A stretch of DNA of 48,575 bases from a virus. Its lineage: Duplodnaviria; Heunggongvirae; Uroviricota; Caudoviricetes. Within the stretch, counting starts at the first letter, position 1; every line of letters starts with the position of its first letter. Location: positions 1 through 48,575 of IMG/VR virus record IMGVR_UViG_2582581022_000007; one strand, 5' to 3'. Of this stretch, positions 8,621 to 48,481 are shown one piece after another. A model generated the notes under the pieces. The model saw only the letters and a program-made list of their open reading frames with translations. It had not been told where the DNA came from and searched no databases. The position numbers were made by a program, and so were the translations under genes.

Positions 8621-8631
8621 GGAGATAACCA

Positions 8632-10379: not shown

Positions 10380-10394
10380 GAATGGAGAAAGAAA

Positions 10395-29449: not shown

Positions 29450-29622
29450 CATGGCATTTTTCATGGTACTGATTTCCGGCGACGGTATATAAAACGGTAT
29501 TGGAAATTTTGTTTCTTTAAAAGTTGTTGTCAGTCAATTACTTATGTTGTCCGTAAATAATTGAGTGGGAATGATTTAACGTCTGGCAACAGCCTGCACG
29601 TAAAAGCAGTAAAGTACCTCTA

Positions 29623-29654
29623 AGCCCGCGTAACTGCGGGCTTTTTTGTTTTTG
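29623..29654 (+). terminator. rho-independent terminator after lysis cassette
   Basis: AGCCCGC-gtaact-GCGGGCT + TTTTTTGTTTTTG. Confidence 0.75.
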
Positions 29655-29880
29655 TATCTGGCACTTTCTGGCAGCTGTTAGCAACGGGAAGCACGGTTTT
29701 TTCAATGGAATTTTTGATGGTACTCTCTGGTTTCGAATTCAGGTTTGAAAAAGTACCATGTGATAAATTTCGGTTGAGTTATGGTATTTATTTTTTATAA
29801 CTCAATTAAAAACAGAGAGTTAAACAAGTTTTCTGAATTTTTTACAACATGGTATTTTTGATAAAGGAAAACAATAAAAC

Positions 29881-31071
29881 ATGTTGACTGACACCAGGCT
29901 GCGTCACCTTAAGCCGAAGGAGAAACTCTATAAAGTTAATGACCGTGATGGTCTGTATGTTGCGGTCACTCCGGCTGGAACTATTTCATTTCGTTATAAC
30001 TATTCAATAAACGGAAGACAGGAGACCGTTACTTTTGGCCGCTATGGTGTTGGAGGGATCACGCTTGCAGAAGCGCGTGAACGGCTCAATGAAGCTAAAA
30101 AAATGGTTGCCAGTGGAAGATCGCCAGCGAGGGAAAAAGCTAGAGATAAAGCTCGTATCAAAGATGCGGAGACTTTTGGTGCATGGGCTGAGAAATGGTT
30201 ACGCGGTTATCAAATGGCTGAATCGACGCGTGATATGCGGCGTTCGGTATATCAAAGGGAGTTGAAGTCAAAATTTGCGCAGCAGAAATTGACCGAGATT
30301 ACACATGAAGACTTACGCGCATTAACCGATAACATTGTCGAGAGAGGGGCACCGGCGACAGCTGTGCACGCCAGAGAGATTGTATTGCAAGTCTATCGCT
30401 GGGCTATTGAGCGCGGTCAGAAGGTTGAGAATCCCGCTGATCTGGTACGGCCTGCAAGCATAGCGAAATTTGAGCCTCGTGACAGGGCATTGACGCCAGT
30501 TGAAATTGGTCTGATGTATCGGTACATGGAACGGGTAGGAACGACGCCATCAATCAGAGCAGCGGTTAAACTTTTGCTGTTAACGATGGTACGTAAAAGT
30601 GAGCTTACTAACGCAACCTGGAACGAGATCAATTTTAGTGAGGCATTATGGACGATACCAAAGGAGAGGATGAAACGACGTAATCCACATTTGGTTTTTC
30701 TTTCCAGACAGGCAATGGATATTATGATTGCTCTCAAAACCTTTGCCGGTAGCTCTGATTTTATCCTTCCTTCGCGGTACGATTCCGATGCGCCAATGAG
30801 TAGCGCTACTTTAAACCGGGTTTTGACACTGACGTATCGTCTGGCTCAGAAAGAAGGGGACTTGTTACCTAAGTTTGGTCCCCATGACTTACGGCGTACT
30901 GCCAGCACCTTGCTACATGAGGCCGGGTACAATACTGACTGGATTGAGAAGTGCCTTGCCCATGAACAAAAGGGGGTACGAGCTGTTTATAACAAGGCTG
31001 AATATCGTGAGCAGAGGGCCGAGATGCTACAAGATTGGGCGAATATGATTGATGAATGGACTAGTAAGTAG
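29881..31071 (+). CDS. int: tyrosine recombinase/integrase, P4-type
   Basis: N-terminal arm-binding-like region (RLRHLKPKEKLYKVNDRDGLYVAV); C-terminal catalytic signature HDLRRTASTLLHEAGY...CLAHEQKGVRAVYNKAEY. Confidence 0.9.
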   Translation: MLTDTRLRHLKPKEKLYKVNDRDGLYVAVTPAGTISFRYNYSINGRQETVTFGRYGVGGITLAEARERLNEAKKMVASGRSPAREKARDKARIKDAETFGAWAEKWLRGYQMAESTRDMRRSVYQRELKSKFAQQKLTEITHEDLRALTDNIVERGAPATAVHAREIVLQVYRWAIERGQKVENPADLVRPASIAKFEPRDRALTPVEIGLMYRYMERVGTTPSIRAAVKLLLLTMVRKSELTNATWNEINFSEALWTIPKERMKRRNPHLVFLSRQAMDIMIALKTFAGSSDFILPSRYDSDAPMSSATLNRVLTLTYRLAQKEGDLLPKFGPHDLRRTASTLLHEAGYNTDWIEKCLAHEQKGVRAVYNKAEYREQRAEMLQDWANMIDEWTSK

Positions 31072-31125
31072 TTAATAATCAGTGATTTAAGTGGATATAC
31101 TTCTTTTATCTACGCCAGGAGAGCA

Positions 31126-31142
31126 ATTTTAGCCGCTAAAAT
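31126..31142. promoter_or_regulatory. 17-bp perfect palindrome ATTTTAGCCGCTAAAAT (KorB operator-like), copy 1
   Basis: Matches the TTTAGC(C/G)GCTAAA IncP KorB operator consensus as I recall it; ~55 bp upstream of gene 31195. Confidence 0.5.
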
Positions 31143-31194
31143 TTACTGAATCTTTACTGGTTTTATCTGGATTGCATAAAAAGGAAAAATAAAA

Positions 31195-31824
31195 GTGCCT
31201 GAGTTGTCTGTAATTATACAATGGATGAATCAATACCCTAAGACCGGCTGGCTATTGCTGTGTATCTATATTGCACTCGGTGTAGTTCGTCACAGAGTAA
31301 TTAATGCTGAATCTGGAAGTGTATTTCGTGGACTACTCAATCTTAGGAAGCGCCGGCTAGAGCAAATGCTGACACAGCCATATTTGAATAAAAATGCGGT
31401 CCGTCTGGCAAAGCGTGAGCTTCGTCAGCGCAGCCTTTATCGGCTCACAGGCTTGTATAATTATCGGCTGCAGGATTTGGCTGTAATAATGTGTGATCGT
31501 TATGGGTTGCGGGCTGGTTATCTCAAGCCGTGGCGTAACTGGCTCGAAGAACGGGATGGACGGATTGTGTTCAACAGGAAATGGCATTGTTTTCGCTGGC
31601 GTCTTTTTCTGGTAGGTCAGATTGTAAACACAGTTCTACTAATCTTATTCATTATGTATATAGTTTCTCATTCTTCGGCCGAAATGATCGCACCGCTTAT
31701 GTTACTCTTCATGCTTGTATGGTGGTTTCCTTGGCTAATGATCACCTCGGTACCTACCCCTAGGTGGACTCGCGAAATGGAAGTCTATCTTGAGAAATTT
31801 AACGCTGAACAGACCATGGTTTAA
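31195..31824 (+). CDS. hypothetical membrane protein
   Basis: 209 aa, several hydrophobic segments; GTG start with AAGGA RBS; flanked by palindrome copies 1 and 2. Confidence 0.45.
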   Translation: MPELSVIIQWMNQYPKTGWLLLCIYIALGVVRHRVINAESGSVFRGLLNLRKRRLEQMLTQPYLNKNAVRLAKRELRQRSLYRLTGLYNYRLQDLAVIMCDRYGLRAGYLKPWRNWLEERDGRIVFNRKWHCFRWRLFLVGQIVNTVLLILFIMYIVSHSSAEMIAPLMLLFMLVWWFPWLMITSVPTPRWTREMEVYLEKFNAEQTMV

Positions 31825-31961
31825 ACTGTTCTTTGTTACCATGCATTCAGAGTGAATTGTCAGAGTTTTGGAAGATTCCATCCTACGAGTAATACTCACA
31901 AGGTAATTCACATAATCAATAGGTTAAGTCATAAGCTTCTTGACCCTACATGAGAAGACGA

Positions 31962-31978
31962 ATTTTAGCTGCTAAAAG
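31962..31978. promoter_or_regulatory. KorB operator-like palindrome, copy 2 (ATTTTAGCTGCTAAAAG)
   Basis: One central and one terminal mismatch; flanking ~15 bp also resemble copy 1. Confidence 0.4.
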
Positions 31979-32401
31979 TTTGGGCATATTTGGACTTAAA
32001 TGCCACCGACATGATTCTAATAATTAAGCCAGTACCTAATGAGCCAAGAGAAGACAACTGTAAACGCCCCTTGGCTTAGACTTGCTTTCAGGAAAGCGAA
32101 TGCTTTTTATGGTCAGGGACAAGTAAGGGGATGAGCCATTGCATAACCATAAAACCAATTCGTTCTATGTCATTACAGATCGGCTTCAGTGATTTACTGG
32201 TGAGGTAGTATCACTGTGATCCGTTTTGCATAACGCTTACAGCTGCGCTACAAACAATAAACTATAATACTGTATTTTCAAAATCATCAATTTGAAGCAG
32301 GGTAATCGCGAAAAACCCTCGTAAGTGGCTGGTTATAATTCAATAAAGTGGATGATATTAAGACTTAAACTGCCACCATAATAGCTCGTGGATATACTAT
32401 T

Positions 32402-33373
32402 TTAAATATAAAATTCTTTCCTCACAGACGCTAAGGCCTTGGACACAGCCTGCTTTGTCATAGTTGTGTAGTGATTTTTTTCTAAAACCTGTGCGGTTTC
32501 AAACTGGTTAAAACCTTGGTGTTTTAATATGATTATTTTTTTCTTAGTATCAGTGAATTTGGAGTCAACCATTCGTCTGGCAATATTCCTAAGTTTATCT
32601 AGATCTGCTGGGGTTAAAGTTTGACCCTGCATCCACTCATGAAAATAGGTATCAATCAATATATCCCCTGTGTTTGCGTTAGCTTTATGCGGTTTAGCGC
32701 ATTGCCGTCTAAGCCTTATTAATTCTTTATTGAACTGTTCGAGAGACCGCTTTCCTTGTCTGTATTTGGGATTCCATAGACCATTGGTGAGTTTGGGCCT
32801 ATGGTCAGAACAATATCGATGACTAAGGACCTGTTTTTCATGAACGGGGAACTCATTATCGTTAGCAACAAATTCTGATATCTCACTGATCAACTTGGAA
32901 AATTCGGTTAGATTACCGCAGAACTCGCAATAACCGAGCTTACGCTGTGAATTTATAGTTACTCCTTTTGCAGGAGAGGATTTCTTCGGCCGCTTGGATG
33001 CGCACTCACTGACTAATTCAATAAGAGACTCAATCGTAGCGGTAAAGCATTTATCAAGAGAAGTTTGTTGATCTAAAGTCAGAACGAAATTACGCAAAAG
33101 AAGTCTTTGTGCCTGTACTACGACGTTTAAGCCCACTTTTTTAAGTACATCACTAAATCCTAGATTTACTCCAGAAATGTAGTCTTTATGACTTGGTGGC
33201 AGGGAATTTACATAAGCAGCTACTGCTGGATCAATAACTTCCTGTATGAGACGCAGTATTGGATACCTCCGTGAAAATATGGAGTACGGATAACTACGCT
33301 CTACAAATAATTTAATTGCAGCTGCAACTGTGAGGTCACAGCCTTCCCAGATAGTAATTTTCATGTCAACCAT
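32402..33373 (-). CDS. hypothetical regulator-like protein with Cys/His cluster and C-terminal HTH-like segment
   Basis: AT-rich ORF divergent from alpA; CEFCGN...CSDH cluster; start set at first ATG not overlapping alpA; no convincing RBS. Confidence 0.4.
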   Translation of the reverse strand: MVDMKITIWEGCDLTVAAAIKLFVERSYPYSIFSRRYPILRLIQEVIDPAVAAYVNSLPPSHKDYISGVNLGFSDVLKKVGLNVVVQAQRLLLRNFVLTLDQQTSLDKCFTATIESLIELVSECASKRPKKSSPAKGVTINSQRKLGYCEFCGNLTEFSKLISEISEFVANDNEFPVHEKQVLSHRYCSDHRPKLTNGLWNPKYRQGKRSLEQFNKELIRLRRQCAKPHKANANTGDILIDTYFHEWMQGQTLTPADLDKLRNIARRMVDSKFTDTKKKIIILKHQGFNQFETAQVLEKNHYTTMTKQAVSKALASVRKEFYI

Positions 33374-33450
33374 TTTAGCCAATGAATAGGTTTTAGCAAG
33401 TGGTAATGCTTGGCATTGTATAGGCCTGATTGGAAACAGGAGGAAGGCAG

Positions 33451-33681
33451 ATGCAAACAAAGGCACATAGCACGCTCATTAACAGAAAAACACTTCTGGA
33501 AATGATCCCATTGTCAGCCCGCACTATTTATAACCTTGAACAGCGAGGCGAGTTTCCTCGCCGTATAGCACTTACTAGTCGAAATGTTGCATGGCAGTTA
33601 TCCGAAGTGGAACAGTGGATTGCGGATCGTAAATCAGCAATGTTTAAAGCGGCCAGACCCGGTGTTGTTTTAGGTAGGTAA
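33451..33681 (+). CDS. alpA: AlpA-family transcriptional regulator (prophage CP4-57 regulatory protein type)
   Basis: ~76 aa with LLEMIPLSARTIYNLEQRGEFPRRI HTH; AGGAGGAAGG RBS before ATG 33451. Confidence 0.75.
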   Translation: MQTKAHSTLINRKTLLEMIPLSARTIYNLEQRGEFPRRIALTSRNVAWQLSEVEQWIADRKSAMFKAARPGVVLGR

Positions 33682-33686
33682 CAGCA

Positions 33687-34544
33687 ATGTCATTGAACAT
33701 AATGGAAGCATTTGAAGCTAAGCCACAACCAATTGATTACGTCTTGCCTAATTTGGCTATTGGTACTATCGGAGCGATTGTTTCTCCGGGAGGCGCTGGA
33801 AAGTCAATGCTGGCATTACAATTGGCTGTGCAGATTACTTGTGGTGTAGATCTTTTAAACTTTGGTGAATATCCGACTGGGTTGGTGGCATATTTACCTG
33901 TGGAGGACTCTGAAACCATCGTTCACCATCGTTTATATGCGTTGGGAAAATATCTAACAGCACGTCAGCAGCAGATTGTAGCTGATAAGCTACTGGTCGA
34001 ACCTTTGGTAGGGAAGTGTCCAAATATTTTCTTGCCGGATTGGAGCAACTTGATCAATGAAGTTTCAAAAGGTAGACGTTTAATAATTTTGGATACTCTT
34101 CGCCGTTTCCACCAGGAGGATGAGAATAATAGCGCAGCAATGTCCAAAGTCATTGGAAAGCTAGAAGGTATTGCTGCTGATACTGGATGTTCGATTATAT
34201 TTCTACACCATTCAAACAAAGGCGCTGCCACGATGGGGGTTGGTGATATACAGCAGGCAAGCAGGGGTAGTAGCGTCCTGGTTGATAATATACGGTGGCA
34301 ATCTTATCTGGCGGGCATGACCGCCTTGGAAGCGAAGACGTATGGTATTTCTGATGATGTTCGAGGTCAATTTGTTAGATTTGGAATAAATAAAGTAAAT
34401 TATGGAGAACGTGCGCCAGATCGTTGGTTACAGAGACATGAGGGGGGAGTATTAAAAATAACGGCGCTCAGCTCGAAGAATAATAAAAAGCTTACTAAAG
34501 AAAGAACATCTACCTGGAGTGGCGCTGACAATGACAACTGGTAA
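33687..34544 (+). CDS. RecA-fold P-loop ATPase (AAA_25/RepA-like)
   Basis: Walker A IVSPGGAGKSMLALQLA, Walker B-like RLIILDTL, IIFLHHSNK; typical partner of alpA in integrative islands. Confidence 0.6.
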   Translation: MSLNIMEAFEAKPQPIDYVLPNLAIGTIGAIVSPGGAGKSMLALQLAVQITCGVDLLNFGEYPTGLVAYLPVEDSETIVHHRLYALGKYLTARQQQIVADKLLVEPLVGKCPNIFLPDWSNLINEVSKGRRLIILDTLRRFHQEDENNSAAMSKVIGKLEGIAADTGCSIIFLHHSNKGAATMGVGDIQQASRGSSVLVDNIRWQSYLAGMTALEAKTYGISDDVRGQFVRFGINKVNYGERAPDRWLQRHEGGVLKITALSSKNNKKLTKERTSTWSGADNDNW

Positions 34545-35313
34545 TAAAGTGGCACCCACAAGTACAGCTTGGCAAGCCCGAGTAATTCTGTACCAGCCAA
34601 GCCAGCGTCCTAAGGAGGTGAAGGGACAATGGATGGAGACTAGTTTTGGTCGTTGTCGTGTTACCGGACGGCTCGGACAGCGTCATGCCGATATCGTAGA
34701 GACAATATTATATGTTGCCGAGCAACGTCGTGAAATTTCTGATGGTGGAATCGAATTATTAGTAGATCCAGCGAAAGTACGCCGAACGCTATCCGATGCA
34801 CAATACAGTTATGGTCGTATACAGAAATTGCTTTTAGATCTGCGCGTCGCAACAGTTGAAATTATAACGCCAGAGCTGGAGAAAAGCGGCGACTGTATAA
34901 TAGGGGGACTGATCGATCATGTAGTGCCATCACCTATGACGCGTCCAGATCCTTTGACTGGGGGAGAACGCCGTTTATGGCGTGTCCGTCTGGGTGTTGC
35001 ATTAGCGATGTTACTCAAAAAAGATTTGCCATTTTATTATCATCCTGGCCCCATAGCTCGGCTACAACATGGTATTAGCCAGGCAGTCGCTCGTCATGTC
35101 TTAACCCATAGTAATAATCCTTTAGGAGGGTGGTATATGGATACGTTGATATTAGCAGTATGCGGTGAAGGAACGAGTAATATGACTTTACGTAACTATC
35201 GTCGGAGATTGAAAGAAGATTCCGTGCAATTGCTGGAAATTGGAATTGATTTGAACGGTTCTAGGATAAAACGTGTCACAACGGCCCGATATTGTGTCAC
35301 AACGGCCCGATAG
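34519..35313 (+). CDS. hypothetical protein, possibly replication-associated (3' end overlaps iteron array)
   Basis: 264-aa ORF; last ~40 nt lie within 21-bp iterons; start codon uncertain (GTG 34519 or ATG 34531). Confidence 0.35.
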   Translation: MALTMTTGNKVAPTSTAWQARVILYQPSQRPKEVKGQWMETSFGRCRVTGRLGQRHADIVETILYVAEQRREISDGGIELLVDPAKVRRTLSDAQYSYGRIQKLLLDLRVATVEIITPELEKSGDCIIGGLIDHVVPSPMTRPDPLTGGERRLWRVRLGVALAMLLKKDLPFYYHPGPIARLQHGISQAVARHVLTHSNNPLGGWYMDTLILAVCGEGTSNMTLRNYRRRLKEDSVQLLEIGIDLNGSRIKRVTTARYCVTTAR

Positions 35314-35356
35314 CGTGTTATAGCGGCCCGGTAGCGTGCTACAGCGGCCCGATTTT
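35273..35356. repeat. iteron-like array, 4 tandem 21-bp repeats (GTGTCACAACGGCCCGATATT and variants)
   Basis: Units at 35273, 35294, 35315, 35336 share GTG-yyAyAgCGGCCCGrTa core; followed by AT-rich region with GATC sites. Confidence 0.7.
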
Positions 35357-35564
35357 TTACTATTCAGCAGTATTTACAGGATCGTTCAGGATCTACAGTC
35401 TTTGAAATCACCTGCCTGAGCAGGCGCTTTCAAATCTAGAATCGGCCAAAGGCCGATGGTTGTACGCCAGAAGAAGAGATTACTTACTCGTTTGGTATAT
35501 TGACACTTGAGGTAGGTTTTATGACATATGAGGTACGCCCCTAGCTTTAGGCATAGGGAGGAAG

Positions 35565-35581
35565 ATTTTAGCCGCTAAAAT
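35565..35581. promoter_or_regulatory. KorB operator-like perfect palindrome ATTTTAGCCGCTAAAAT, copy 3
   Basis: Identical 17-mer to copy 1; ~400 bp upstream of mobC-like gene. Confidence 0.5.
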
Positions 35582-35970
35582 CTGCAATGCACATGCTTTG
35601 ACAATGTAAGTAAAAAAGTGCATGAGAAAATAAAATATTTCTTACAATATATCGAAACATAAATACAGTTGGTGGACGCCCATTTATAACTACTAAAGGT
35701 CATTTTCAAAAGGGAGAAATATAGTTTCCTTGCAAGAAACACATTTGCTGCAGATCTTTACCCGAGTAATCCTATATTAATACGCTAAGAAAACACATCC
35801 TGTACACTGAAATACACATTGATGTGCACAGATATACTACGGCAACAGGAGGGCAGGACATGTAAAGTAGGCCCACCGCTACGGTGTTCCAACTTTACCA
35901 CTCCCTATTCGCCGCATCGCGGCTCAAGGGCGTCCTGCTCTGCCAGGCTACCGCCTGTATGGAGAGCTAT

Positions 35971-36324
35971 ATGAAAGTTACTCAGACTAGAAAAAATAGT
36001 ACGCCAATAAAAGTTTATTGTTTACCCGAAGAAAAAATTCTCATCCAAGAAAATGCAGAAGCATCTGGATTAAGTGTTGCCTGTTTTGTTCGTAGAGTTG
36101 CAATGGGTTATCAGGTTGATTCTATCGTAGATATAAAACAGGTTAATGAACTTAGCCGAGTAAACGCTGATCTTGGAAGACTTGGCGGATTACTTAAATT
36201 ATGGCTCGCAAATGATCCTCGAACAGTTGATTTTTCACCCACCCTGATAAGAACCTTGCTTGCGAAAATAGAATCAACTCGGCAAGAACTAAGGAACATT
36301 ATGGATAAAATCTTGGATAAATAA
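35971..36324 (+). CDS. MobC-like ribbon-helix-helix mobilisation accessory protein (putative)
   Basis: 117 aa from ATG 35971 (GGAGAG RBS); IKVYCLPEEKILIQENAEASGLSVACFVRRVAMG resembles relaxosome RHH proteins. Confidence 0.45.
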   Translation: MKVTQTRKNSTPIKVYCLPEEKILIQENAEASGLSVACFVRRVAMGYQVDSIVDIKQVNELSRVNADLGRLGGLLKLWLANDPRTVDFSPTLIRTLLAKIESTRQELRNIMDKILDK

Positions 36325-36405
36325 ATGTGTGGTTTCCTATATACCTGCGTCTGTTAAAAGACAGTGTGTTAAATATTACTGAACTGATGAAAAAGAGGTG
36401 AGCAA

Positions 36406-37200
36406 ATGAATTTAATGTTCCGAGTGGTTTCATTACAAAGAGGGATTTTAGCCGCTAAAAAAGCTTTAATAGTTCCTTTCGTGGCGTCCGTCATGGCATT
36501 ACCGGTTAAGGCCGGAATTCCCGTTATTGATGGCACTAATGTGGTTCAGACCACAATCAGCGCAGTTAACAACGTTCAGGCTGTGACTAAACAGATCCAG
36601 CAGTACCAGACGCAGCTGCAGCAGTATGAAAACATGCTCAAAAATACCGTCGCACCTGCGGCCTATATCTGGGATCAGGCCAATTCAACCATCAACAAAT
36701 TGTTGCAGGCGCAGGACACTCTTAATTACTACAAAAATCAGGCCGGGAGTCTTGATTCATATCTGAAACGTTATCAGGACGTGAATTACTACCGCTCATC
36801 ACCGTGCTTTAACAGTAATGTTGAATGTACTGCAGATGAAATCAGCGCACTGCGTAAAGCAGAACAGAACAGCTCTGAGGCGCGTAAAAAGGCCAATGAC
36901 GCCGTTTTTAAGGCTCTTGATGAACAGCAAGAAACACTGCAAAGCGATGCTGATAACCTGGCAGATTTGCAAACTCAGGCAACCGGCGCACAAGGGCAAA
37001 TGGAAGCTATTCAGGCCGCTAACCAGCTTGCAAGTGCTCAAACGAACCAGCTGCTGCAAATCCGCTCGCTCCTGGTAGCCCAGCAAAACGCTGCAGCAAC
37101 ACTGGCACAGGCTCAGGCAGATAAAGAATCACAACAGATAGCCGCTGATGAAAAAGCGTTAGCTGGAGAGAATACACCAAGCCCGAAGCGAATTTGGTGA
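36406..37200 (+). CDS. trbJ: TrbJ/VirB5-like type IV secretion protein
   Basis: Signal peptide, Q-rich coiled-coil (QIQQYQTQLQQYENMLKNT), ~260 aa, followed by small lipoprotein and TrbL-like gene as in IncP trbJ-trbK-trbL. Confidence 0.6.
   Translation: MNLMFRVVSLQRGILAAKKALIVPFVASVMALPVKAGIPVIDGTNVVQTTISAVNNVQAVTKQIQQYQTQLQQYENMLKNTVAPAAYIWDQANSTINKLLQAQDTLNYYKNQAGSLDSYLKRYQDVNYYRSSPCFNSNVECTADEISALRKAEQNSSEARKKANDAVFKALDEQQETLQSDADNLADLQTQATGAQGQMEAIQAANQLASAQTNQLLQIRSLLVAQQNAAATLAQAQADKESQQIAADEKALAGENTPSPKRIW
36445..36461. promoter_or_regulatory. KorB operator-like palindrome, copy 4 (ATTTTAGCCGCTAAAAA), inside trbJ 5' end
   Basis: 16/17 palindrome; encodes ILAAK within the putative signal peptide. 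Confidence 0.4.
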
Positions 37201-37211
37201 GGAAACGCAGA

Positions 37212-37385
37212 ATGAAAGATAATCTTTTGATTGTATTTATTCTGATCAGTTTATTGGCCATATGTTCTTGCGATAAAAATGATAAAGATTGTTTATCGAC
37301 GCCAGATAATAAATTTGATGAAAATAAATACGATAAATGTGCTCTACGGAGTAATAATAAACCAAGCCCTAAACGAGAATGGTAA
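37212..37385 (+). CDS. trbK: small lipoprotein, TrbK-like (entry exclusion) by position
   Basis: MKDNLLIVFILISLLAICSC signal/lipobox-like N-terminus, 57 aa, between trbJ-like and trbL-like genes. Confidence 0.45.
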   Translation: MKDNLLIVFILISLLAICSCDKNDKDCLSTPDNKFDENKYDKCALRSNNKPSPKREW

Positions 37386-38779
37386 TCATGAAAATAGCAA
37401 GTAAGCTCACCTTTCTAGGTATCATAATTTTCTTTTCTATAAATGCCTATGCTGGTCAATTAGATAGTAGCGGGCTACTTGATTCTTTATTAGATAAGTT
37501 TCAACAAGTAGCCAGTACATGGACAACAGTAATTGCTGACTATGCAAATTGGCTCTTCTGGGGGCTGGTATTAATAAGTATGGTTTGGACATTTGGTATG
37601 ATGGCAATGCAAGGAGAAGGGTTGACAGGCGTACTTGCTGAAATAGTTCGCTTTTTTGCCGTCATTGGTTTTTTTTATTATCTTTTAATCAACGGCCCAT
37701 CCATATCGCAATCCATAATTAATTCAATGAGGCAACTTGCAGCAAACGCTTTAGGAATAAGTACTGGTATTTCGCCCTCAAGCATAGTTGATATGGCGTT
37801 TGCGATATTAACAAAGGTCAGTTCAGCCGCATCAATTTGGTCGCCAATGATATCCACCATTATGATAACAGTAGCGATAATCGTTTTGGTAGTGATGTCC
37901 CTTATAGCGATAAATATGCTAATCATGTTGGTTTCTGCATGGGTGTTATGTTATGCAGGAGTTATATTGCTTGGATTTAGTGGTTCGAAATGGACCTCTG
38001 ATATAGCAATTAATTACTTACGAACTGTTTTATCGATTGGCATTCAATTATTCACGATGACATTAATTATTGGGATTGGACAATCATTTATAGATCAATA
38101 TTTTTCTCTTATTAAAGATGATGTTCCTGATCTTAATAGTCTTATCGTTTTGCTTCTGGCGTCAATTATCCTGTTAGTATTAACGAATAAGCTACCACTG
38201 TTGTTATCAGGTGTTGTAGGAGGAGCTTCTTTACAAGGGATTGGTGGATTTGGGGCGGGTATGATTACTGGCGCTGCCGCTACTGCCATCAGCGGTGCTG
38301 GAGCAATTGCAATGGGGGCATCAGCTCAAGTCAGCGGCGGAGCCTCTGCATTAAAGGCAGCGTTCGAGTCTGCGCAAGCTGCCATGGCCGAGGAATCTGG
38401 TTCAGGTGGTGGAGGCGGTTCCGGTGGAGGATTTGGCGTCGGGGAAGATACCGGTTCTGTAGATACTTCTGGAGGCCAACCCTCAGGCAGTTCCGGTGGT
38501 TCGTCAGCATGGAGCAGTTCAGTTAGCTCCAGCGGAGGAAGTCAGGGGTTTGCTTCATTCTCACGAGCTGGCCGCATGGCAAGCCATATGGGAAGCATCA
38601 TGGCCAACGGAGCTGCTGAGTACCAGAAAATGAAGCGAAGTAGCAATTCTTCTCGTGTCCAACAAACTATTGGAGGGGAGTTGGCGACTCAGATACGTAA
38701 GCAGACAGCTACTCATCGGGATAACCGCGAACATGATGATTTTGCCGATGATAGCTTATCGGGTAATAATAAATCTTGA
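37379..38779 (+). CDS. trbL: TrbL/VirB6-like polytopic membrane protein
   Basis: 466 aa, many transmembrane segments, Gly/Ser-rich C-terminal tail (SGSGGGGGSGGGFGVGEDTGS). Confidence 0.65.
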   Translation: MVIMKIASKLTFLGIIIFFSINAYAGQLDSSGLLDSLLDKFQQVASTWTTVIADYANWLFWGLVLISMVWTFGMMAMQGEGLTGVLAEIVRFFAVIGFFYYLLINGPSISQSIINSMRQLAANALGISTGISPSSIVDMAFAILTKVSSAASIWSPMISTIMITVAIIVLVVMSLIAINMLIMLVSAWVLCYAGVILLGFSGSKWTSDIAINYLRTVLSIGIQLFTMTLIIGIGQSFIDQYFSLIKDDVPDLNSLIVLLLASIILLVLTNKLPLLLSGVVGGASLQGIGGFGAGMITGAAATAISGAGAIAMGASAQVSGGASALKAAFESAQAAMAEESGSGGGGGSGGGFGVGEDTGSVDTSGGQPSGSSGGSSAWSSSVSSSGGSQGFASFSRAGRMASHMGSIMANGAAEYQKMKRSSNSSRVQQTIGGELATQIRKQTATHRDNREHDDFADDSLSGNNKS

Positions 38780-38860
38780 ATCATGTGCGTCAGTTAACGA
38801 GGTAGCGTGAGCTGACGCTTTCACTGTGCGAACTTTACTCCTGCAATTCAAAGGAAAAAC

Positions 38861-39325
38861 ATGTCCAGGACTCCCTATACACGGTTACGTATTGAGGGCT
38901 TCCGCAAAGCAGAGGCTTCCCTGAGACTTGAAGGAATGGACCCCAGTGGTACGCCACTGTACGAGTCCATTAAGGCACGTATTATTTCAGGTGAACTGAC
39001 GTATGAGCAGGGGCGTTCAGAGATTCTTACATACTACACAAAAGCAGATACTGACGGGCCTGTGACAGTGGGAGAGATGCTGGTAGAGGAATTTTTAAAA
39101 CCGCTGAACATGTCTCATGATGAACTGGCGGAAGCTATGGGTATCTGCAAGCAGTATATTGACGATATTATCTGCGGTTTGCGTCGTCTTACGGATGATG
39201 AGGCTCGCGTTCTTGCTGTCATATTTGGTACTGATGAGGACTTTTGGAGTAACCTTCAAAAGTTGCAAGATTGCAAGGAAAACCAAGTAAGTAGCCTTCG
39301 TCCACTTCGTGTTAGACCATGCTAG
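38861..39325 (+). CDS. HigA-like XRE-family HTH protein with N-terminal VbhA/FicA-like SxxxEG motif region
   Basis: C-terminal VGEMLVEEFLKPLNMSHDELAEAMGICKQYIDDIICGLRRLTDDEARVLAVIFGTDEDFWSNLQ matches HigA antitoxin HTH pattern; N-terminal ASLRLEGMDPSG has the (S/T)xxxE(G/N) motif. Confidence 0.55.
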   Translation: MSRTPYTRLRIEGFRKAEASLRLEGMDPSGTPLYESIKARIISGELTYEQGRSEILTYYTKADTDGPVTVGEMLVEEFLKPLNMSHDELAEAMGICKQYIDDIICGLRRLTDDEARVLAVIFGTDEDFWSNLQKLQDCKENQVSSLRPLRVRPC

Positions 39326-39514
39326 CTGCTCTTCACATGTCATGAATGTTAGAATATTTGTTCAAAGTCATTTCTTCAGAGCAAAATTTTTAATAGCGGA
39401 TAGAAAAATGCAAGGTATGTTGGAAAAATAAACGAAGCGAGTACGCAAACGTCTTGAAATGCAGTAACATCATTCCGCCACACTGGCAGTTGGCTAACGG
39501 CGAAAGGAGTTCAT

Positions 39515-40747
39515 GTGAGCCAAGAAGATGATGATAAGTATCCAGCTAGCGCCGTATCCTCATGGAGCGGCTTCGTTTATCAAGGGAAAATTGCATTATA
39601 TCACTCCCTCAAGATTATTCACGATGGCGATCTAGACTTTGAGCTTCAGCTAGACAGTAGTGACGACTTCGCTATTTATAAAAATGGAAAACTACACACA
39701 GCCCATCAAGTCAAAGCGAAGATAAGTAAATATCGAAGTGGTTACACCAAGGCGCTGGAACAGTCTACTTTAATCGAACACGACAAAATCCAAGGGACAA
39801 CGCGTTACTTCCATGTATCTGTTCCTCTAAATAATACGGACGATCATAGAGGCGCTAGCGGAGAAATAGTAAAATTCTATCGCTATGGGGATAATTATTA
39901 TTGTGGTTTGGGTGAAATTGAAGGGCTTACCAAAGAACTAATAAAAAAAATATGTAATAAGCAGCACATCATTGTCAGTGATAACCTTATAAATTTTAAC
40001 TATTGTTTACTTTCTGAAAAAATCAGCACCAAGGCAATATACAATCATAAATTAAATCAGGTTGGCGGAATTTCAGAAAACAGAGCAGCATATGAGGGTC
40101 GTATCAAGGCCAGAAATATTCTAGAAGACCTGCTAACCGAAAACCCCTATCAGAATAGGGACTACTATGCAGTTGCATTAAAGGCCAGGCTTCAAACTCA
40201 TCTGGAAGAGAGGTTGGATCAGGCGCTTCCAACAATGAGTGACACTACTTACGAGAGAGCTAGATGTCTGTGTGAGCACATTCGCGAAACTCATATCAAT
40301 GAATTGAAAGCCCTATGCCAGATGATGAAGCCCTCCGAGCGATTTCAAGACGTTCAGACGAACGACATCAGGCGATACACCAAGCTTATCCAGGCTATTT
40401 CGGTGGAGCCTATATTCAACCACCTCCCACACTACCTTGACAGCGAAAATCGATTTTACGTACCTACCGCTCTTGATGTAGATGAAAGCGAAGAGTGTGA
40501 GTTTGACATGACCCGTGAAATGAAAAACAACGGGGATCTGCTGAGACTACTTTTTGAGTATAACCATCTAATCGCCAGCAAAGCAGAAGCCTCATTCACC
40601 TTTAATACAAAATTTACAAACTCAGATGACTTCGACAACAAGCAGACCACTGAAAAGCTCGAAAGCAACATCACCAAGTCGCTATGCATTAGCGTGATAA
40701 CAAAAGACGATGCGGAGGAACGACTGAATGATAAAGCAACTCATTGA
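39515..40747 (+). CDS. candidate defence effector, LmuA-like (N-terminal PD-(D/E)xK-like nuclease motifs)
   Basis: GTG start with AAAGGAG RBS; GFVYQGKIALYHS...DLDFELQLDSSDDF...HQVKAK suggests D...D...(E/Q)xK nuclease; first gene of coupled operon. Confidence 0.45.
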   Translation: MSQEDDDKYPASAVSSWSGFVYQGKIALYHSLKIIHDGDLDFELQLDSSDDFAIYKNGKLHTAHQVKAKISKYRSGYTKALEQSTLIEHDKIQGTTRYFHVSVPLNNTDDHRGASGEIVKFYRYGDNYYCGLGEIEGLTKELIKKICNKQHIIVSDNLINFNYCLLSEKISTKAIYNHKLNQVGGISENRAAYEGRIKARNILEDLLTENPYQNRDYYAVALKARLQTHLEERLDQALPTMSDTTYERARCLCEHIRETHINELKALCQMMKPSERFQDVQTNDIRRYTKLIQAISVEPIFNHLPHYLDSENRFYVPTALDVDESEECEFDMTREMKNNGDLLRLLFEYNHLIASKAEASFTFNTKFTNSDDFDNKQTTEKLESNITKSLCISVITKDDAEERLNDKATH

Positions 40748-41393
40748 TGAAGCACTTGTTGCACATGGCTTTGTTAGTAAACGCGACTTGGACAACACAA
40801 GCTTTTATATTCGCGAGTCTGGATCTGCTATCAGGTTTGCAGTTCTATATAATCTTGATGACCTTCCTGACCCAGCCGAATTGAATAATAGAATCAATCA
40901 TCTTGCTCCTAGTGAATTTCTCAGAAACCCAAGCTTTAAGAAAAACTGCGACTTGATTTGTATTTATCGTCTTGATGTTCTGGCCAATTTCAAAGATCAC
41001 GAAGAAGAGATTTTCGCAATTGAAGAAGATCCGCACTTCTATAAAAAGTATGTTCTCTATTACAGTATCGCGGAAGAAAGTGCACTCACTAATTTCACCT
41101 ACGACAAACTGGTATCTGTTATTGCTGACAAAAAAGAATTTCTTGAATACAAAGAAAATCCTCTTAACGCCACACAATACAGCTTTGCGGCGAAGACCTT
41201 TATCAAGCTTCCTTTTTTAGAGTTACCTAACCATCAAGAAAATCTTGTGTCCTTGAGGTTACAGGCAGCAGAGGCCGTTGCACAAGCCAGCCTGAACGAT
41301 ACGTATTTGACTATCCAGAAAGTCACAGATAAAAACGCCGACGAAATTATCAAGGAAATGATTAAAAATGAACTGGCAAATATCCAAGATTGA
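40728..41393 (+). CDS. small middle-gene protein of the operon (LmuC-like by position)
   Basis: 221 aa; overlaps upstream gene by 20 nt and downstream gene by 26 nt; GGAGGA RBS. Confidence 0.45.
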   Translation: MIKQLIDEALVAHGFVSKRDLDNTSFYIRESGSAIRFAVLYNLDDLPDPAELNNRINHLAPSEFLRNPSFKKNCDLICIYRLDVLANFKDHEEEIFAIEEDPHFYKKYVLYYSIAEESALTNFTYDKLVSVIADKKEFLEYKENPLNATQYSFAAKTFIKLPFLELPNHQENLVSLRLQAAEAVAQASLNDTYLTIQKVTDKNADEIIKEMIKNELANIQD

Positions 41394-43701
41394 AGTCTCT
41401 AGCTTCAAAGCTTTCAAGCATATCTATTTGGATCTTGACAAGTCGTCTTTGCTAACTCTGGACGGCCCTAACGGTTATGGTAAAACAAGCATATTCGACG
41501 CAATCGAACTATTGCTTACCGGCCAGATCAGTCGAATACAAAATCTATTCAAGACATTACTAACCAAGAACAAGAGAGACTACGCGGACAATCTTTTCTG
41601 GAATAGTCGCTCAGGAGAGAACGATCTCTGCATTAAGATTGAATTTACTAATGATGGTCGCAAACTTGTCTTAGCTAGACATTGCCAAGCTGCAATATTC
41701 AAAAAACCAGTAAACAATCGTGCAGACAAATACGAAAATTTCAAGCTTTATGAGCTGCCAGAATTCGAATCGTCTGAATTCACTAAGATCAATCTGCGCG
41801 ATAATAATTTCCTTGATGAAATTTTCGGAAAGAATTTCAGGGAAAACTTCTCCTTTCTTAACTATTTGGAGCAAGGGCAAAACCGGCTGTTACACACTCG
41901 GGTAGACGAACGGAAGGATAAACTAGGAAACCTATTTAATATCAGTGATATCGAAGCCGAGATTGAAAACTGCAACACTGTATACAGCAAACTCACAAGG
42001 TACATCAATAATCCTGAACGCACGGCAAAAGCTGCATCTCTTATTGAAGAAATAGCCATCCTAAAGGACACATTGCAGGCAGTGGCTGGGAACATTAAGT
42101 ACAAAAAACTCTCGACGACTGATGTCCAACCGGGGTGGGACAAGGAGATAATGTTCTCTACGTATTCGTCAGTGGACCATGCAGCCTACCAGGAATCAGT
42201 TCGTAAGATTATTGCCCTTCTACCACTCAAAGCCACGATAAAAACTAGGGTCCATAACGAGAGAATTGATGCCTACATCGGTCGTAATGAGGAATCTCTG
42301 AGAAGTCTGGCGCAGTTTGGTAAAGACCTGGGCAAGCTTGATGTGCTTGACGCTATCAAGAAAGGGATTGATGAGTTAGAACGTTCAGCAAGTATCATTA
42401 AACGTGGTGCTACGGTGATCAAGCTCGAAGAAGCTCGTTCATTACAAGGTTGGGCGGGTGGGCGTCTTGAGTGGTTTGAGTTACAAATTAATTCTCGAAA
42501 CAGCTTACAAGTAAAAAGTAGCGCCAACACGAACGTTGTAGCCGAATTGGAACGTCTAAAAAGGCAGTTACTTAGGGAACATAAAAAGTCTTATCCCGAC
42601 GAGCAGTTGTGCCCTCTCTGTGGTGCTGACTGGGAAGATCACAAATTAATGGCAGATGCTATTGAAGCAAGAACTAAGCAGATCTCTGAATCATTAGGAC
42701 AGGACGGTAAGGACTTAGTTAACCTTATCGCTGCTATGGACGCAGAGCTGAAACTTATCGACTCCTTTATACAAGACAGCCTGAAACTCCTTACGCCTAC
42801 ATTTGAATCGAACCTTCATGTAGGGCTGACCAGAATTAAGCTTCGGCTCCCGGCAATAACCCAAGTACTGGAAAAGCTGCAAAGCGAAAATATTCAATTT
42901 ACTGATTCATTCACGGAAATTGATGACTTAGTAGATGAGCGACTTGAAAAGCTCAAAGAGATTCTAAGAAATAAAAAACAGGTTGAGGCTGATGCCTTAA
43001 CGCTGCCGGAGGACTGGCGAGAAACCATAAATAGCTCTTTTAAAGATCTGCAGGACTTCTACATAGTCACGGCTGAAGACCTAAAGGGTAAAGAGCATTA
43101 CATATCGATTAAAGCTAACGAGGCTCAAAGTTCTAGGCTCCAAACTTGTATTAAAGATCTTAATCTTATCGAAAAAGAAACCATGGCAGCTCAAAAAGCA
43201 CAAGGTAAAATCGAAAAGCTCCGCAACACTTTGAAAAAGACCGAGCAGAACTATACTGACCAAACAATTTCGGCTATTGAGTTCATATTCCACATTTATA
43301 GTGGTCGGCTGATCCAAAACTACCAGCGTGGCCTGGGCCTGTTTATTGAGAGCCGCGAAGGTACGCAACTGAGGTTCCTGACTGCTGAGAAGTCTGAACA
43401 CGACGCAGTCATGTCCATGAGTTCAGGTCAGGTGTCTGCGCTCAGCCTTGCTTTCTTCCTCGCGCTCAACAAAGTCTATGCACGGGTTCCTCTCATATTG
43501 ATTGACGACCCGTCGCAATCACTGGATGAAGTAAACGTTGCTTCGTTGACCGATCTACTCCGTTGCGAACTCAAACATTGCCAGTTGGTTGTCTCATCGC
43601 ACGAGGACGATATCTCGGCCTATATGCGCTACCGGTTCGACAGAGCCGGTTTGACAACAAGTTCGCTCAACATGCAGCTTTTGGCGAAAGAAGCTTCGTA
43701 A
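41368..43701 (+). CDS. SMC/Rad50-like ABC ATPase with mid-protein CxxC (zinc-hook-like); LmuB-like
   Basis: Walker A GPNGYGKTS (res ~33-41), CPLCG near res ~415 in long charged helix-rich middle, C-terminal SGQVSALSLAF signature, LILIDDP Walker B, SSHED. Confidence 0.75.
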   Translation: MNWQISKIEVSSFKAFKHIYLDLDKSSLLTLDGPNGYGKTSIFDAIELLLTGQISRIQNLFKTLLTKNKRDYADNLFWNSRSGENDLCIKIEFTNDGRKLVLARHCQAAIFKKPVNNRADKYENFKLYELPEFESSEFTKINLRDNNFLDEIFGKNFRENFSFLNYLEQGQNRLLHTRVDERKDKLGNLFNISDIEAEIENCNTVYSKLTRYINNPERTAKAASLIEEIAILKDTLQAVAGNIKYKKLSTTDVQPGWDKEIMFSTYSSVDHAAYQESVRKIIALLPLKATIKTRVHNERIDAYIGRNEESLRSLAQFGKDLGKLDVLDAIKKGIDELERSASIIKRGATVIKLEEARSLQGWAGGRLEWFELQINSRNSLQVKSSANTNVVAELERLKRQLLREHKKSYPDEQLCPLCGADWEDHKLMADAIEARTKQISESLGQDGKDLVNLIAAMDAELKLIDSFIQDSLKLLTPTFESNLHVGLTRIKLRLPAITQVLEKLQSENIQFTDSFTEIDDLVDERLEKLKEILRNKKQVEADALTLPEDWRETINSSFKDLQDFYIVTAEDLKGKEHYISIKANEAQSSRLQTCIKDLNLIEKETMAAQKAQGKIEKLRNTLKKTEQNYTDQTISAIEFIFHIYSGRLIQNYQRGLGLFIESREGTQLRFLTAEKSEHDAVMSMSSGQVSALSLAFFLALNKVYARVPLILIDDPSQSLDEVNVASLTDLLRCELKHCQLVVSSHEDDISAYMRYRFDRAGLTTSSLNMQLLAKEAS

Positions 43702-43856
43702 AAGCCACCTTGGCCACCTATTAGAGCGGGTGGCTAAATTTAGTGTTTCACTACAAATAGCATAAAAGGATGCAAAAATTCGGCGAATTTATTCCACGTG
43801 TTTTTTTAAATTCAATGTATGTTAAAATTGTGTCTATTTTATATCAGGATTGTCAA

Positions 43857-44744
43857 ATGAACTCAATTGTTACAGCTAAGGCATTGTCAGCAAGGAAAAA
43901 GTTTGCAGGCCGTCAATGGTTCTACGATTTTAGAGAACTAACTCAGCGTATTGATGAACAAAATGCCCAAAAAATTGCAGATAGCCTTTCCGTTCGATAT
44001 TCAAAACTAACAAAATTTTGGGATAAGGAAAAGAATTCAGAATGGATGTGCAGAATTTATTTATCGGCAAAAATGGTGATGAACGCCACAATACAGATTA
44101 ACTCCATGGAGTTTGCAAAAGAACGCAATATCCGTATCACAACTCCTTATTTAACATATTATTCCCTCCTTTCACTTCTTCGAGGAATCGTCTACACATT
44201 ACCAGAAGTGGAATGGGAGAATGGAAAGCTTATTGAGATATCGCATCACAAAGCTATAAATTTGGCATTCGACCATCTTTCGGCATTTAATAAGGACTTA
44301 TCTGAAGAGTTTAAAAATATCACGCTCACAGCCAAGGCATATCGTGAATTAATTTCGTATCGCTCCCCAACGTCGGGTGACTCTATAATTGAATCAATAA
44401 GCATCGAAGCGATTGCCACATTGCTAGCTGAGGTGGCACAATTTAACTCTGAAATTTTGGAGTCATCCATTATTAAGAAAGCAGATGGCGCTTCGTTTGA
44501 GTTTCTTAGTAAGTATATAAAAGAGTTATCTGGCATTACTATCGAAGGTATCAATTTCTTCGATCAAGAAGATGCTTATAGGTTAAACTATCTTCGCCGA
44601 AAATACCCTCTACCTCCAAATGTTCTTCATGTCATGACGGAAGGACATGTAGAGGATTTTTTTGGGGCATGGCTACCTAGTGAAGAAATTGAAGGTGCTT
44701 TTGACCCAGATGAAAATTGGGGAGTTATTTTTGATATCCCATAG
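43857..44744 (+). CDS. hypothetical protein (orphan gene between two defence loci)
   Basis: 295 aa from ATG 43857 (AGGA RBS); follows hairpin after previous operon; no motifs I can assign. Confidence 0.4.
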   Translation: MNSIVTAKALSARKKFAGRQWFYDFRELTQRIDEQNAQKIADSLSVRYSKLTKFWDKEKNSEWMCRIYLSAKMVMNATIQINSMEFAKERNIRITTPYLTYYSLLSLLRGIVYTLPEVEWENGKLIEISHHKAINLAFDHLSAFNKDLSEEFKNITLTAKAYRELISYRSPTSGDSIIESISIEAIATLLAEVAQFNSEILESSIIKKADGASFEFLSKYIKELSGITIEGINFFDQEDAYRLNYLRRKYPLPPNVLHVMTEGHVEDFFGAWLPSEEIEGAFDPDENWGVIFDIP

Positions 44745-45064
44745 TTAATTAATTGCGAAGATTATTTTTTTTGTTAATCCAGAACTAAATTGGAATGAAA
44801 AAATATGGGGTTGGGTAGTAAATAGAGCCAATTCCCCATATCCTTCATGGCAAGAATGTTTAAGCGGTATATAACACGTTTATGGACATTCATGAGTTAT
44901 GATTTTTATAAATTAGCATTTCTAAAATCAACTTGGATATTGTAAACCTAGGTCAGTTGACCAAATCTATTACGACACTATACTATACATTTGTCTTTCG
45001 TCTAAATGCCGCTAGGTCAATATCAACGGTATTGACCTTTGCTTCGAATGAATCTTTATAAATA

Positions 45065-45916: not shown

Positions 45917-45918
45917 AA

Positions 45919-47385: not shown

Positions 47386-47665
47386 TGGTCTATGTTCTTC
47401 GGATATACAAACCTTAAATTCACATCTAATTTTGAACCCGAAGTCATTTCACGATGTTTCAGCAGGTGAGATGATCACTTGACCAGCCAATGGGATATGT
47501 TCAGCGGTTTTGTTCAGGCTAAATAAAACTTTTAATGACTCCATTTATTTCCCTATTTAATCATGACTTTAACAGCAATCAATTTAGCAATTCGGTATAC
47601 CGAAGTAGATGGCAATTTGGACTGAAGTTCTCTCACTTATTCAGTTTCTAGCTGATGGTTGCGAC

Positions 47666-48237
47666 TTAAGGGCGTTTCATTCTAATTCCATTAATTGGGA
47701 TGGTAATCCTCCCATTTTTAACCGCAATTAAACGTAGAAGTCTAGCGGCCATTAATGGTGGTTTTCCTCCATTGGCTTTGTGTGGCCGTTCATAATTGGA
47801 AAAACTAAAACCATTTAGTGGCATAGTCTTACACTTCTTCAAGTGTATCAAATAAATGTTTGCTGACCTAGCTGTACATGATCGTTTTGTTATGTAGTTC
47901 GATGTAGGCATTTTGCTGTGGTTTGCCAGGCTGAGTGTACTCAATACGGATCCCATGCATTTTCGACCATTTTGTAAACCCTTGGCTGATTAACTCAGGC
48001 CCATTGTCAAAGCGTATCGCTAGCAGTTTTGTTCGCCATTCGAGCAATTGATTTAGTGTTCTTATCACTTGCAGTGCCAGCAATGAGAACTCTGCTTTAA
48101 TCGGCAAACCTCGTTTGAAGTCGTCGATGACGTTGAAGAACTGATAGCTGCGTCCATCCGCTAGCAGGTCAGCGCTATGTAAAGTGTATAGAGATAAGTT
48201 GGAGGTACAAGGTGGATAGAATTACATCGGAACCAGC
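47666..48237 (-). pseudogene. IS3-family transposase (DDE integrase core) remnant, N-terminally truncated and frameshifted
   Basis: Two overlapping frames: ...FFNVIDDFKRGLPIKAEF...RFDNGPELISQ...QPGKPQQNAYIE and ...NYERPHKANGGKPPLMAARL; in-frame stop at 48238, no start. Confidence 0.65.
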
Positions 48238-48481
48238 GATGACTTGTGGCAGAGAAACAAGAACTTCGTCAGGACATGAAAGAATCCTCAGCTTGGGCCA
48301 ACGTCGAACTAAACACCGATGAGACGCAAAAAATCAAAAAATTTACGCATGGTATAGATGATGGTATCGATAAACCTTTTCTTTATAACAAGCTGTTATT
48401 TCTATATATTTTTTTCTCGTTGATATTCGAGTGGGAATGATTTGACCCTGCACTATGAATGAACAAAACCCTCTGTTACTA

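Follow-up and report, generated by a model that had tools for sequence, protein, structure and literature searches.

Islands that exploit plasmids of incompatibility group IncP-1 have been described as the GIsul2 or 'IncP island' group (PMC5704250) and, more recently, as the PIME1 subfamily (bioRxiv 10.64898/2026.01.12.698999). The locus analysed here matches the organisation of the former and finds its closest match in organisation in the latter. It lies in a stretch of 48,575 nucleotides from a virus of the Caudoviricetes (IMG/VR record IMGVR_UViG_2582581022_000007, positions 1 to 48,575; hereafter the window), of which positions 29560-48440 are an integrative mobilizable element of 18.9 kb at the guaA attachment site. 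Judged by its gene content and borders, this island is a PIME1/GIsul2-family integrative mobilizable element integrated at guaA. Our subject is a set of four palindromes on the island that match the operator of KorB, a protein of IncP-1 plasmids, and the lack of a korB gene to go with them.

About 1,100 such islands are present in RefSeq, and the IncP-1 plasmids pB10 and pKJK5 induce PIME1 excision and roughly 8-fold replication, which IncN, IncX and IncL/M plasmids do not (10.64898/2026.01.12.698999). The int, luxR and alpA genes are essential for helper-induced excision, PIME1's replication origin (oriV) has been mapped downstream of repA, and the inducer of excision is, according to the authors, 'currently under investigation' (10.64898/2026.01.12.698999). 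Unlike induction, recognition of the origin of transfer (oriT) is not common to pB10 and pKJK5, and a drop in pB10 abundance and colony size is seen only with a PIME that is able to excise and replicate (10.64898/2026.01.12.698999).

KorB is a CTP-dependent clamp of the ParB family that loads at its operator (OB), slides over kilobase distances and represses promoters; repression is strong where KorA or TrbA captures KorB at the promoter, and together with the protein IncC, KorB also partitions the plasmid (PMC11790492, PMC13584720). A precedent for an integrative element that uses sites of this kind is SGI1, which carries two functional mimics of the parS site of its helper, a plasmid of the IncA or IncC group. 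The mimics are multiplied by helper-induced replication, with the result that SGI1 is stabilised and IncC plasmids are destabilised (PMC10954446).

Four KorB operators and no korB gene in the window

The OB of IncP-1 plasmids is the 13-bp inverted repeat TTTAGC(C/G)GCTAAA. The initial annotation of the window had given this sequence correctly, since it agrees with the OB oligonucleotide GGGATATTTTAGCGGCTAAAAGGA used in a 2026 study of KorB and TrbA (PMC13584720). In addition, the 13-mer TTTAGCSGCTAAA occurs in 13 copies on the IncP-1 plasmid p14EC001a (L001 in our set of loci), including copies in trbJ and right after traJ, and in 9 exact copies on the IncP-1beta reference R751 (L088), including one inside trbJ. 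A mismatch-tolerant search of the window with the 17-bp palindrome ATTTTAGCCGCTAAAAT found four sites, corresponding to eight strand-matches where 0.30 were expected, and none of 100 shuffles reached this count. All four copies reported by the initial annotation were recovered, two of them perfect and the other two near-perfect. The 13-bp core is exact in copies 1, 3 and 4, and copy 2 has both 6-bp arms and differs at the central base only.

Copy 1 (31126..31142), a perfect 17-bp palindrome with the exact core, lies 55 bp past the int stop codon and upstream of orf209, about 11 bp before a weak promoter-like -35 element that precedes this gene. The same post-int position is occupied in the related loci L002, L003, L006, L007, L008 and L086. 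Copy 2 (31962..31978; TTTAGCTGCTAAA) has two mismatches to the 17-mer, namely a central C>T, a variant also found in L004, L005 and L025, and a last T>G. Orf209 is on one side of it and the 3′ end of luxR on the other, with 424 bp separating it from the luxR stop codon. Copies 1 and 2 bracket the 209-amino-acid open reading frame orf209 (31195-31824), as had been proposed, and because the left flank of copy 2 (31912-31977) is a ∼78% diverged duplicate of the post-int segment, we conclude that the two copies bracket a cargo slot. The int-luxR interval is in fact a cargo hotspot bordered by OB sites, at 31143-32401 in the window, 9134-10348 in L086 and 4796-8626 in L083. It contains orf209 in the window, a gene for an EexN-family entry-exclusion lipoprotein in E. 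coli EC13 (L086), a gene for a 1276-aa SIR2-domain protein in L083 and other DNA in L004; in the window, as in L086, the cargo is flanked by an OB at either end.

Copy 3 (35565..35581), again a perfect palindrome, is located between the iterons/oriV and oriT and has equivalents in L002-L008, L086 and L087. It lies about 65 bp upstream of the promoter-like sequence TTACAA-N16-TACAGT, a spacing that resembles the class II operators of RK2. Copy 4 (36445..36461) has the exact 13-bp core and one mismatch to the 17-mer (last T>A); it lies in the 5′ end of trbJ, where it encodes ILAAKK, and has its counterparts at the same place of trbJ on p14EC001a (position 8468) and R751 (position 25579). Copies 3 and 4 had been said to bracket a mobC-like gene. 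The bracketing stands, with oriT also inside, but the gene is really traJ according to its PF21983 match and RefSeq. The purine-rich, GAG-containing left flanks that had been noted at all copies are shared by the window and its close enterobacterial relatives, but conservation does not extend to other subfamilies, so the flanks do not belong to the operator site. Two TTTTAGC half-sites at 33373 and 33391, 18 bp apart in the divergent luxR/alpA promoter, were considered as extra KorB or KorA half-sites and rejected because other subfamilies do not conserve them.

When the KorB, IncC, KorA, TrbA and KorC proteins of p14EC001a were compared by tblastn with the window and with the 80 related loci that RepA had retrieved, no match reached E≤0.01, and Pfam scans of the island open reading frames found no ParB domain, in agreement with the initial report that the window lacks korB. 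KorA and TrbA lock KorB through a conserved C-terminal motif; no reading frame of any fetched locus has this motif, and LuxR and AlpA, searched as possible carriers of a KorA/TrbA-like domain that interacts with KorB, gave no match. The KorA operator GTTTAGCTAAAC is not present in the window at up to two mismatches. A logic comparable to that of copy 3 is seen on R751, where an OB precedes trbB by about 180 bp and the TrbA operator covers the -10 element; we take the TrbA operator to be CGATATATCG, with which this position before trbB agrees. A 10-mer with one mismatch to it, CAATATATCG, is found at 35645 and conserved in close relatives, but it occurs at chance frequency and was not counted as evidence.

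A korA-incC-korB region of the p14EC001a type is present in 68 of 5426 complete E. coli genomes, and none of the 30 strains with a full-length island is among the 60 genomes listed of these 68. Thus, the island sites are orphan operators, normally without a supplier of KorB. The absence of korB, incC and korA from the element further indicates that these orphan operators would be used in trans and do not belong to an IncP-1 backbone.

Conservation of the operators across the island family

The 80 loci retrieved by RepA alignment came from GTDB species representatives, and further loci were obtained from a read-archive assembly and from E. coli genomes. Genes were mapped by tblastn before OB sites were located, and sites were counted by position and not by motif to avoid ascertainment bias. 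The OB in the 5′ end of trbJ is exact in 32 of 34 distinct island trbJ genes, although TrbJ identity to the protein of the window ranges from 53 to 100%. At least one OB is present in 22 of 24 distinct int-luxR intervals (54-4074 bp), across LuxR proteins that are 44-54% identical, and each of the four minimal intervals (54-84 bp) contains one. Of 28 distinct luxR 3′ regions, 19 have an OB no more than 200 bp from the luxR stop codon; outside the enterobacterial clade of the window, 19 of 22 regions have one within 200 bp downstream of this stop codon. When 88 distinct 63-mers were compared, the core was invariant and the 25-bp flanks could not be aligned between subfamilies.

The possibility, raised in the initial annotation, that the motif is common background is contradicted by its density, as 115 sites were found in 0.73 Mb of island cores versus 3 in 0.82 Mb of flanking DNA, and at least two of these three lie just upstream of the traJ-trbJKL cassette in L087. 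No OB was found on IncQ-like contigs that have a related RepA but neither int nor trb genes. We conclude that OB is a hallmark of the whole island family and that chance is excluded as its explanation.

The sites occupy recurrent positions. One class falls within the opening codons of trbJ and is present in almost all islands as well as on p14EC001a and R751, and another lies directly after the traJ stop codon, as on p14EC001a. The remaining classes are found in the interval that separates int from the convergent luxR, usually 15-60 bp past the luxR stop codon; upstream of alpA in relatives without luxR; and, in the enterobacterial clade, between the replication genes and traJ. L083, a guaA island that encodes a relaxase and represents the type used in experiments, has OB sites after luxR, after traJ and in trbJ, and L086, which has a different replicon, has four exact OB sites in the same architecture as the window. 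L087, which has a different integrase and is located at the thrW site, carries two OB sites in tandem upstream of traJ, 2 bp apart. In this otherwise unrelated island of E. coli PSS-08-1, located at a tRNA-Thr gene and with Pycsar cargo, OB, oriT, traJ and trbJKL form a cassette (11636-15073), and we therefore view the cassette as a portable module for exploiting IncP-1 plasmids.

Relatives without luxR, from Zobellella and Oceanisphaera, have OB upstream of alpA (L009 at 9390-9700; also L010, L031 and L038), with two sites in L009 and L010. The same upstream region contains GTTTAGCTTAAC, one mismatch from the KorA operator, in L009, L010 and L031, and an exact CGATATATCG, the presumed TrbA operator as found before trbB in R751, in L009, L010 and L038. 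By its sequence, the alpA upstream region of these relatives looks like a complete IncP-1-style regulated promoter of the excision regulator.

Probable docking of helper KorB and alternative explanations

The island palindromes are identical to OB, KorB is absent in cis and the sites are selectively conserved throughout the family. We consider it probable that they are genuine OB sites on a KorB-less PIME1/GIsul2 element, at which the KorB of a helper plasmid would dock and load in trans. Regulation in trans by a co-resident IncP plasmid had been one of three options of the initial annotation, and the evidence favours it over relics and over another island protein, both of which are weighed below.

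We infer that KorB binds the island sites and that several effects follow. In a cell with an IncP-1 helper, this CTP-dependent clamp would load at the island OB sites, and with copy 3 upstream of the putative oriT/traJ promoter, copy 4 in trbJ and copy 1 before orf209, the IncP-derived transfer cassette and the adjacent cargo could come under the KorB control that also governs the transfer genes of the helper. Once excised and amplified, the island (about 8 copies with 4 sites each) would add some 30 operators per cell, similar in order of magnitude to what the helper itself carries; these operators may recruit the IncC-KorB partition machinery of the helper and compete for KorB. From established IncP-1 biology, titration of KorB would be expected to de-repress the kil and tra functions of the plasmid, and competition for KorB by amplified OB sites would explain the lower pB10 abundance and small colonies seen with an excising PIME. 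For sensing an IncP-1 helper, the best candidate input would be the OB retained where int meets luxR or, in islands without luxR, the OB upstream of alpA. The analysis also predicts that enterobacterial IncP-1 plasmids of ∼40-55 kb with mcr-1 (p14EC001a type) are natural helpers of the relaxase-less E. coli islands, to which the trbJKL homology described below points as well; pB10 and pKJK5 fail to mobilise relaxase-less E. coli PIME1 (10.64898/2026.01.12.698999).

Several points weigh against docking of helper KorB. KorB is known as a repressor, so that alone it does not explain induced excision. The promoter matches near copies 1 and 3 have a weak consensus. With no KorA operator and only a chance-level TrbA-like 10-mer in the window, long-range silencing of the RK2 type, which depends on a co-repressor, is not obviously available. 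GIsul2-type islands have the trbJ site only, and conserved OB positions could reflect descent and not position-specific function. Nor is a centromere role guaranteed, since partition of RK2 reportedly proceeds through a single operator, its OB3, with the other OB sites said to be destabilising (Williams et al. 1998).

An extended reading is that KorB at the int/luxR OB is itself the inducing signal, which switches on luxR, alpA and hence excision. We regard this extension as tentative and rather unlikely; it would sharpen docking of helper KorB and does not exclude it. KorB could slide over luxR to the divergent luxR/alpA promoter and relieve silencing there, as VirB does against H-NS, or it could block convergent read-through from int. 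The template is VirB of Shigella, a ParB-like clamp that loads at a parS-like site far from the promoter and switches genes on (cited in PMC13584720). Induction is specific to IncP-1 yet common to the divergent plasmids pB10 and pKJK5, while oriT recognition is not common to them, and of the helper-factor sites searched for in the window only OB was found, which makes KorB the best current candidate for the inducer. Consistent with this idea, the OB 13-mer is identical in R751 and p14EC001a, an OB is near the luxR stop codon in 19 of 28 regions, OB is the sole recognisable element of the minimal int-luxR spacers (54-84 bp), luxR-less relatives have OB upstream of alpA instead, excision requires both luxR and alpA, and the G+C content here is about 39-42%. 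However, KorB has been shown to repress only, and neither H-NS silencing nor read-through has support here; KorB likewise lacks support for counteracting silencing, and VirB serves as an analogy only. In addition, the window site nearest luxR is the central-T variant at a distance of 424 bp, GIsul2-type islands have no int/luxR site, and the inducer could equally be another IncP-1 product that acts on the LuxR or AlpA proteins. It is also conceivable, but in our estimate unlikely, that signal and titration are combined, with KorB read as the cue to excise and replicate and the amplified OB sites then titrating KorB and thereby de-repressing or destabilising the helper.

Other explanations do without a present role for KorB or place a different process at the same sites. 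The OB sites might be inert relics that came from an IncP-1 ancestor together with the traJ/trbJKL cassette, or were kept as trbJ coding sequence, given that IncP-1 plasmids have OB sites at exactly the positions of the trbJ and post-traJ copies and that the trbJ site alone is retained in GIsul2-type islands. Yet the 13-mer is invariant in nearly all island trbJ genes while adjacent codons vary freely, and the sites after int, after luxR, before alpA and between the replication genes and traJ are non-coding, have unalignable flanks and lack a plasmid counterpart. Several positions without such a counterpart in otherwise unconstrained DNA argue strongly against inert relics, an option of the initial annotation that is also contradicted by the invariance of the 13-mer among islands whose core proteins are 45-60% identical, and we consider this explanation very improbable. 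Alternatively, OB might be the operator of an island or host DNA-binding protein (AlpA, LuxR, the HigA-like helix-turn-helix protein or TraJ) that happens to coincide with a KorB site. Several helix-turn-helix or ribbon-helix-helix proteins are encoded on the island, but OB is also present in islands without luxR (GIsul2 type and L009) and in GIsul2-type islands without tblastn-detected traJ, and IncP-1 plasmids, which have neither AlpA nor LuxR, carry the identical site as the established KorB operator. As no island protein is like KorB, KorA or TrbA and no candidate is common to all OB-bearing elements, this third option of the initial annotation seems to us extremely improbable. Finally, OB sites might act as recombination anchors, that is, short shared sequences for swapping modules between islands and helpers, which would be compatible with KorB binding. 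The 91% nucleotide homology between island and plasmid begins exactly at copy 4, and OB pairs bracket the variable int-luxR cargo slot in the window and in L086. Nevertheless, 13-17 bp is too short for efficient RecA-dependent recombination, the cargo in L004 and L083 is bordered by a single OB, and deletion from OB to OB leaves 120 bp between traJ and copy 4 unexplained, so that we think such a role improbable. A specific version, loss of traI by deletion between a post-traJ OB and the trbJ OB, was rejected because these 120 unrelated bp separate traJ from copy 4.

The island and its place among known elements

The left border of the island is the attL core ATTGAGTGGGAATGA (29560..29574, plus strand), an exact match to the last 15 bp of guaA. 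Homology places this border at 29560 when E. coli islands are compared and at 29561 with L003, and in E. coli RM10042 the same island begins at the guaA stop codon. The island adjoins guaA at 99% identity in RM10042 and in about 30 further complete E. coli genomes. The right border is an attR-like repeat, TTCGAGTGGGAATGA (48426..48440, plus strand), with two mismatches to the attL core and 0.08 matches expected by chance. An epsilon15/phiV10-like prophage with tail, tailspike and lysis genes is found in positions 1-29559 and shares 82-88% identity with portions of phiV10 and epsilon15. Some 110 bp separate its end from the att core at 29560, and in this window the prophage lies between guaA and the island; the two therefore appear to occupy the guaA attachment site in tandem. 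Among complete E. coli genomes, none covered at least 80% of the prophage-island junction.

The island genes begin with int (29881..31071, plus strand), which encodes a tyrosine integrase with the Pfam domains Phage_integrase, Arm-DNA-bind_3 and Phage_int_M. The hotspot gene orf209, also on the plus strand, encodes a predicted membrane protein without a match in Pfam, NCBIfam or PADLOC; it is missing from L004 and L005, and SIR2 or EexN genes are found at its place in other islands. The regulator known as LuxR in PIME1 elements is encoded on the minus strand (32402..33373; the open frame extends to 33466) and corresponds to a 323-aa RefSeq protein named LuxR family in several genomes. The genes from alpA through the HigA-like gene are on the plus strand. 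They include the excision regulator gene alpA (33451..33681; Pfam Phage_AlpA, with RefSeq coordinates by homology), the gene of an IncQ-type RepA helicase (33687..34544; Pfam AAA_25, with homologues named 'helicase RepA family') and that of a RepC-like protein (34519..35313), which has no Pfam match and is kept beside repA in related loci. Tandem Repeats Finder identified 3.9 copies of a 21-bp iteron at 35272..35353, the putative oriV.

The IncP-type oriT core (35850..35950, plus strand) was aligned with the oriT of p14EC001a and those of other islands, and has a nic-like motif, TCCTG|C, at 35933-35943. At 35944 the window is missing the 8 bp GAGGCTGC directly 3′ of the nic-like TCCTGCTCTGC; these 8 bp are present in all close relatives examined (L002 at 21385, L003, L004, L006 and L086). 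The traJ gene (35971..36324) encodes a NikA-like oriT-binding protein with 60% amino acid identity to TraJ of p14EC001a. It is followed by trbJ-trbK-trbL (36406..38779; Pfam TrbL), which encode an IncP-type VirB5, an entry-exclusion lipoprotein and VirB6, and whose IncP-like nature the initial annotation had recognised correctly. Positions 36446-38580 are 91% identical in nucleotide sequence to 8467-10628 of p14EC001a, an mcr-1 plasmid, and to the trbJKL of enterobacterial IncP-1 plasmids of ∼40-55 kb, to which p14EC001a belongs; the first matching position, 36446, falls at copy 4. Comparison of trbJKL (91% nucleotide identity) with TraJ (60% amino acid identity) suggests a recent exchange of this module. 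A relaxase and further secretion-system genes were not found among the island open reading frames, and the type IV secretion system is incomplete. A HigA-like helix-turn-helix protein (38861..39325, plus strand; TIGR02607, HTH_3) precedes the defence cargo, which consists of a Lamassu/ABC-3C system (39515-43701; Pfam CTD1, MComp1 and SMC_N; PADLOC LmuA/C/B) and the candidate defence system PDC-M01 (45065-47385; PADLOC PDC-M01A/B). These islands are reported to carry anti-phage systems, and the cargo agrees with that role. The gene content by which PIME1/GIsul2 elements are recognised is thus present, comprising guaA att repeats, alpA, a luxR-type regulator, repA/repC with iterons, an IncP-like oriT, traJ and trbJ-K-L.

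Full-text literature searches returned no report of KorB operators on these islands; Harmer et al. 2017 lay outside their scope, and an earlier mention there is possible. The words 'KorB' and 'operator' do not occur in the PIME preprint (10.64898/2026.01.12.698999), 'operator' does not occur in the GIsul2 integrase paper and 'KorB' does not occur in the review of integrative mobilizable elements (PMC5704250). Through IncP-1 plasmids these islands disseminate defence systems as well as resistance genes, sul2 among them, across the Pseudomonadota, and family-wide orphan OB sites name a concrete molecule and concrete sites, so that helper detection becomes directly testable. If docking of helper KorB is true, the islands would be a second, independent case of an integrative element that mimics the ParB sites of its helper, and the first in which the ParB doubles as a global regulator; titration of KorB would then be a possible way to destabilise broad-host-range resistance plasmids. 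If KorB is also the inducing signal, the island would have recruited a repressor for induction and would then use it against the plasmid that encodes it.

In comparison with PIME1EcRHB23-C07, PIME1MmNCTC12028 and GIsul2, the island has the same guaA site and the same set of int, luxR, alpA, repA/repC, IncP-like oriT, traJ, trbJ-K-L and defence cargo. Strain RHB23-C07 is not among the listed E. coli island matches, so the likeness to the tested element is one of organisation only. Relative to the published descriptions of PIME1 and GIsul2, the KorB operator sites are a new feature. The island shares with the IncP-1 plasmids RK2/RP4, R751 and p14EC001a the identical 13-mer, which is present several times on each element and often extends identically to 15-17 bp. 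In contrast to the island, these plasmids encode KorB, IncC, KorA and TrbA in cis and have KorA or TrbA operators at the target promoters, whereas the island sites are chromosomal and reside in hosts that usually have no IncP-1 plasmid.

The comparison with SGI1 is closest in principle, as both elements lack their own ParA/ParB and bear the ParB-binding sites of a helper (PMC10954446), and the lower pB10 abundance with an excising PIME fits the pattern of helper destabilisation. The two differ in element family, helper group (here IncP-1) and ParB, and no Sci-like enhancer protein was identified here. KorB is also the global transcriptional repressor of its plasmid, so the island sites, whose role is predicted, may have regulatory effects as well. 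Mimicry of helper ParB sites is thus known from SGI1, and what is new here is its probable appearance in an unrelated element family and with a dual-function ParB.

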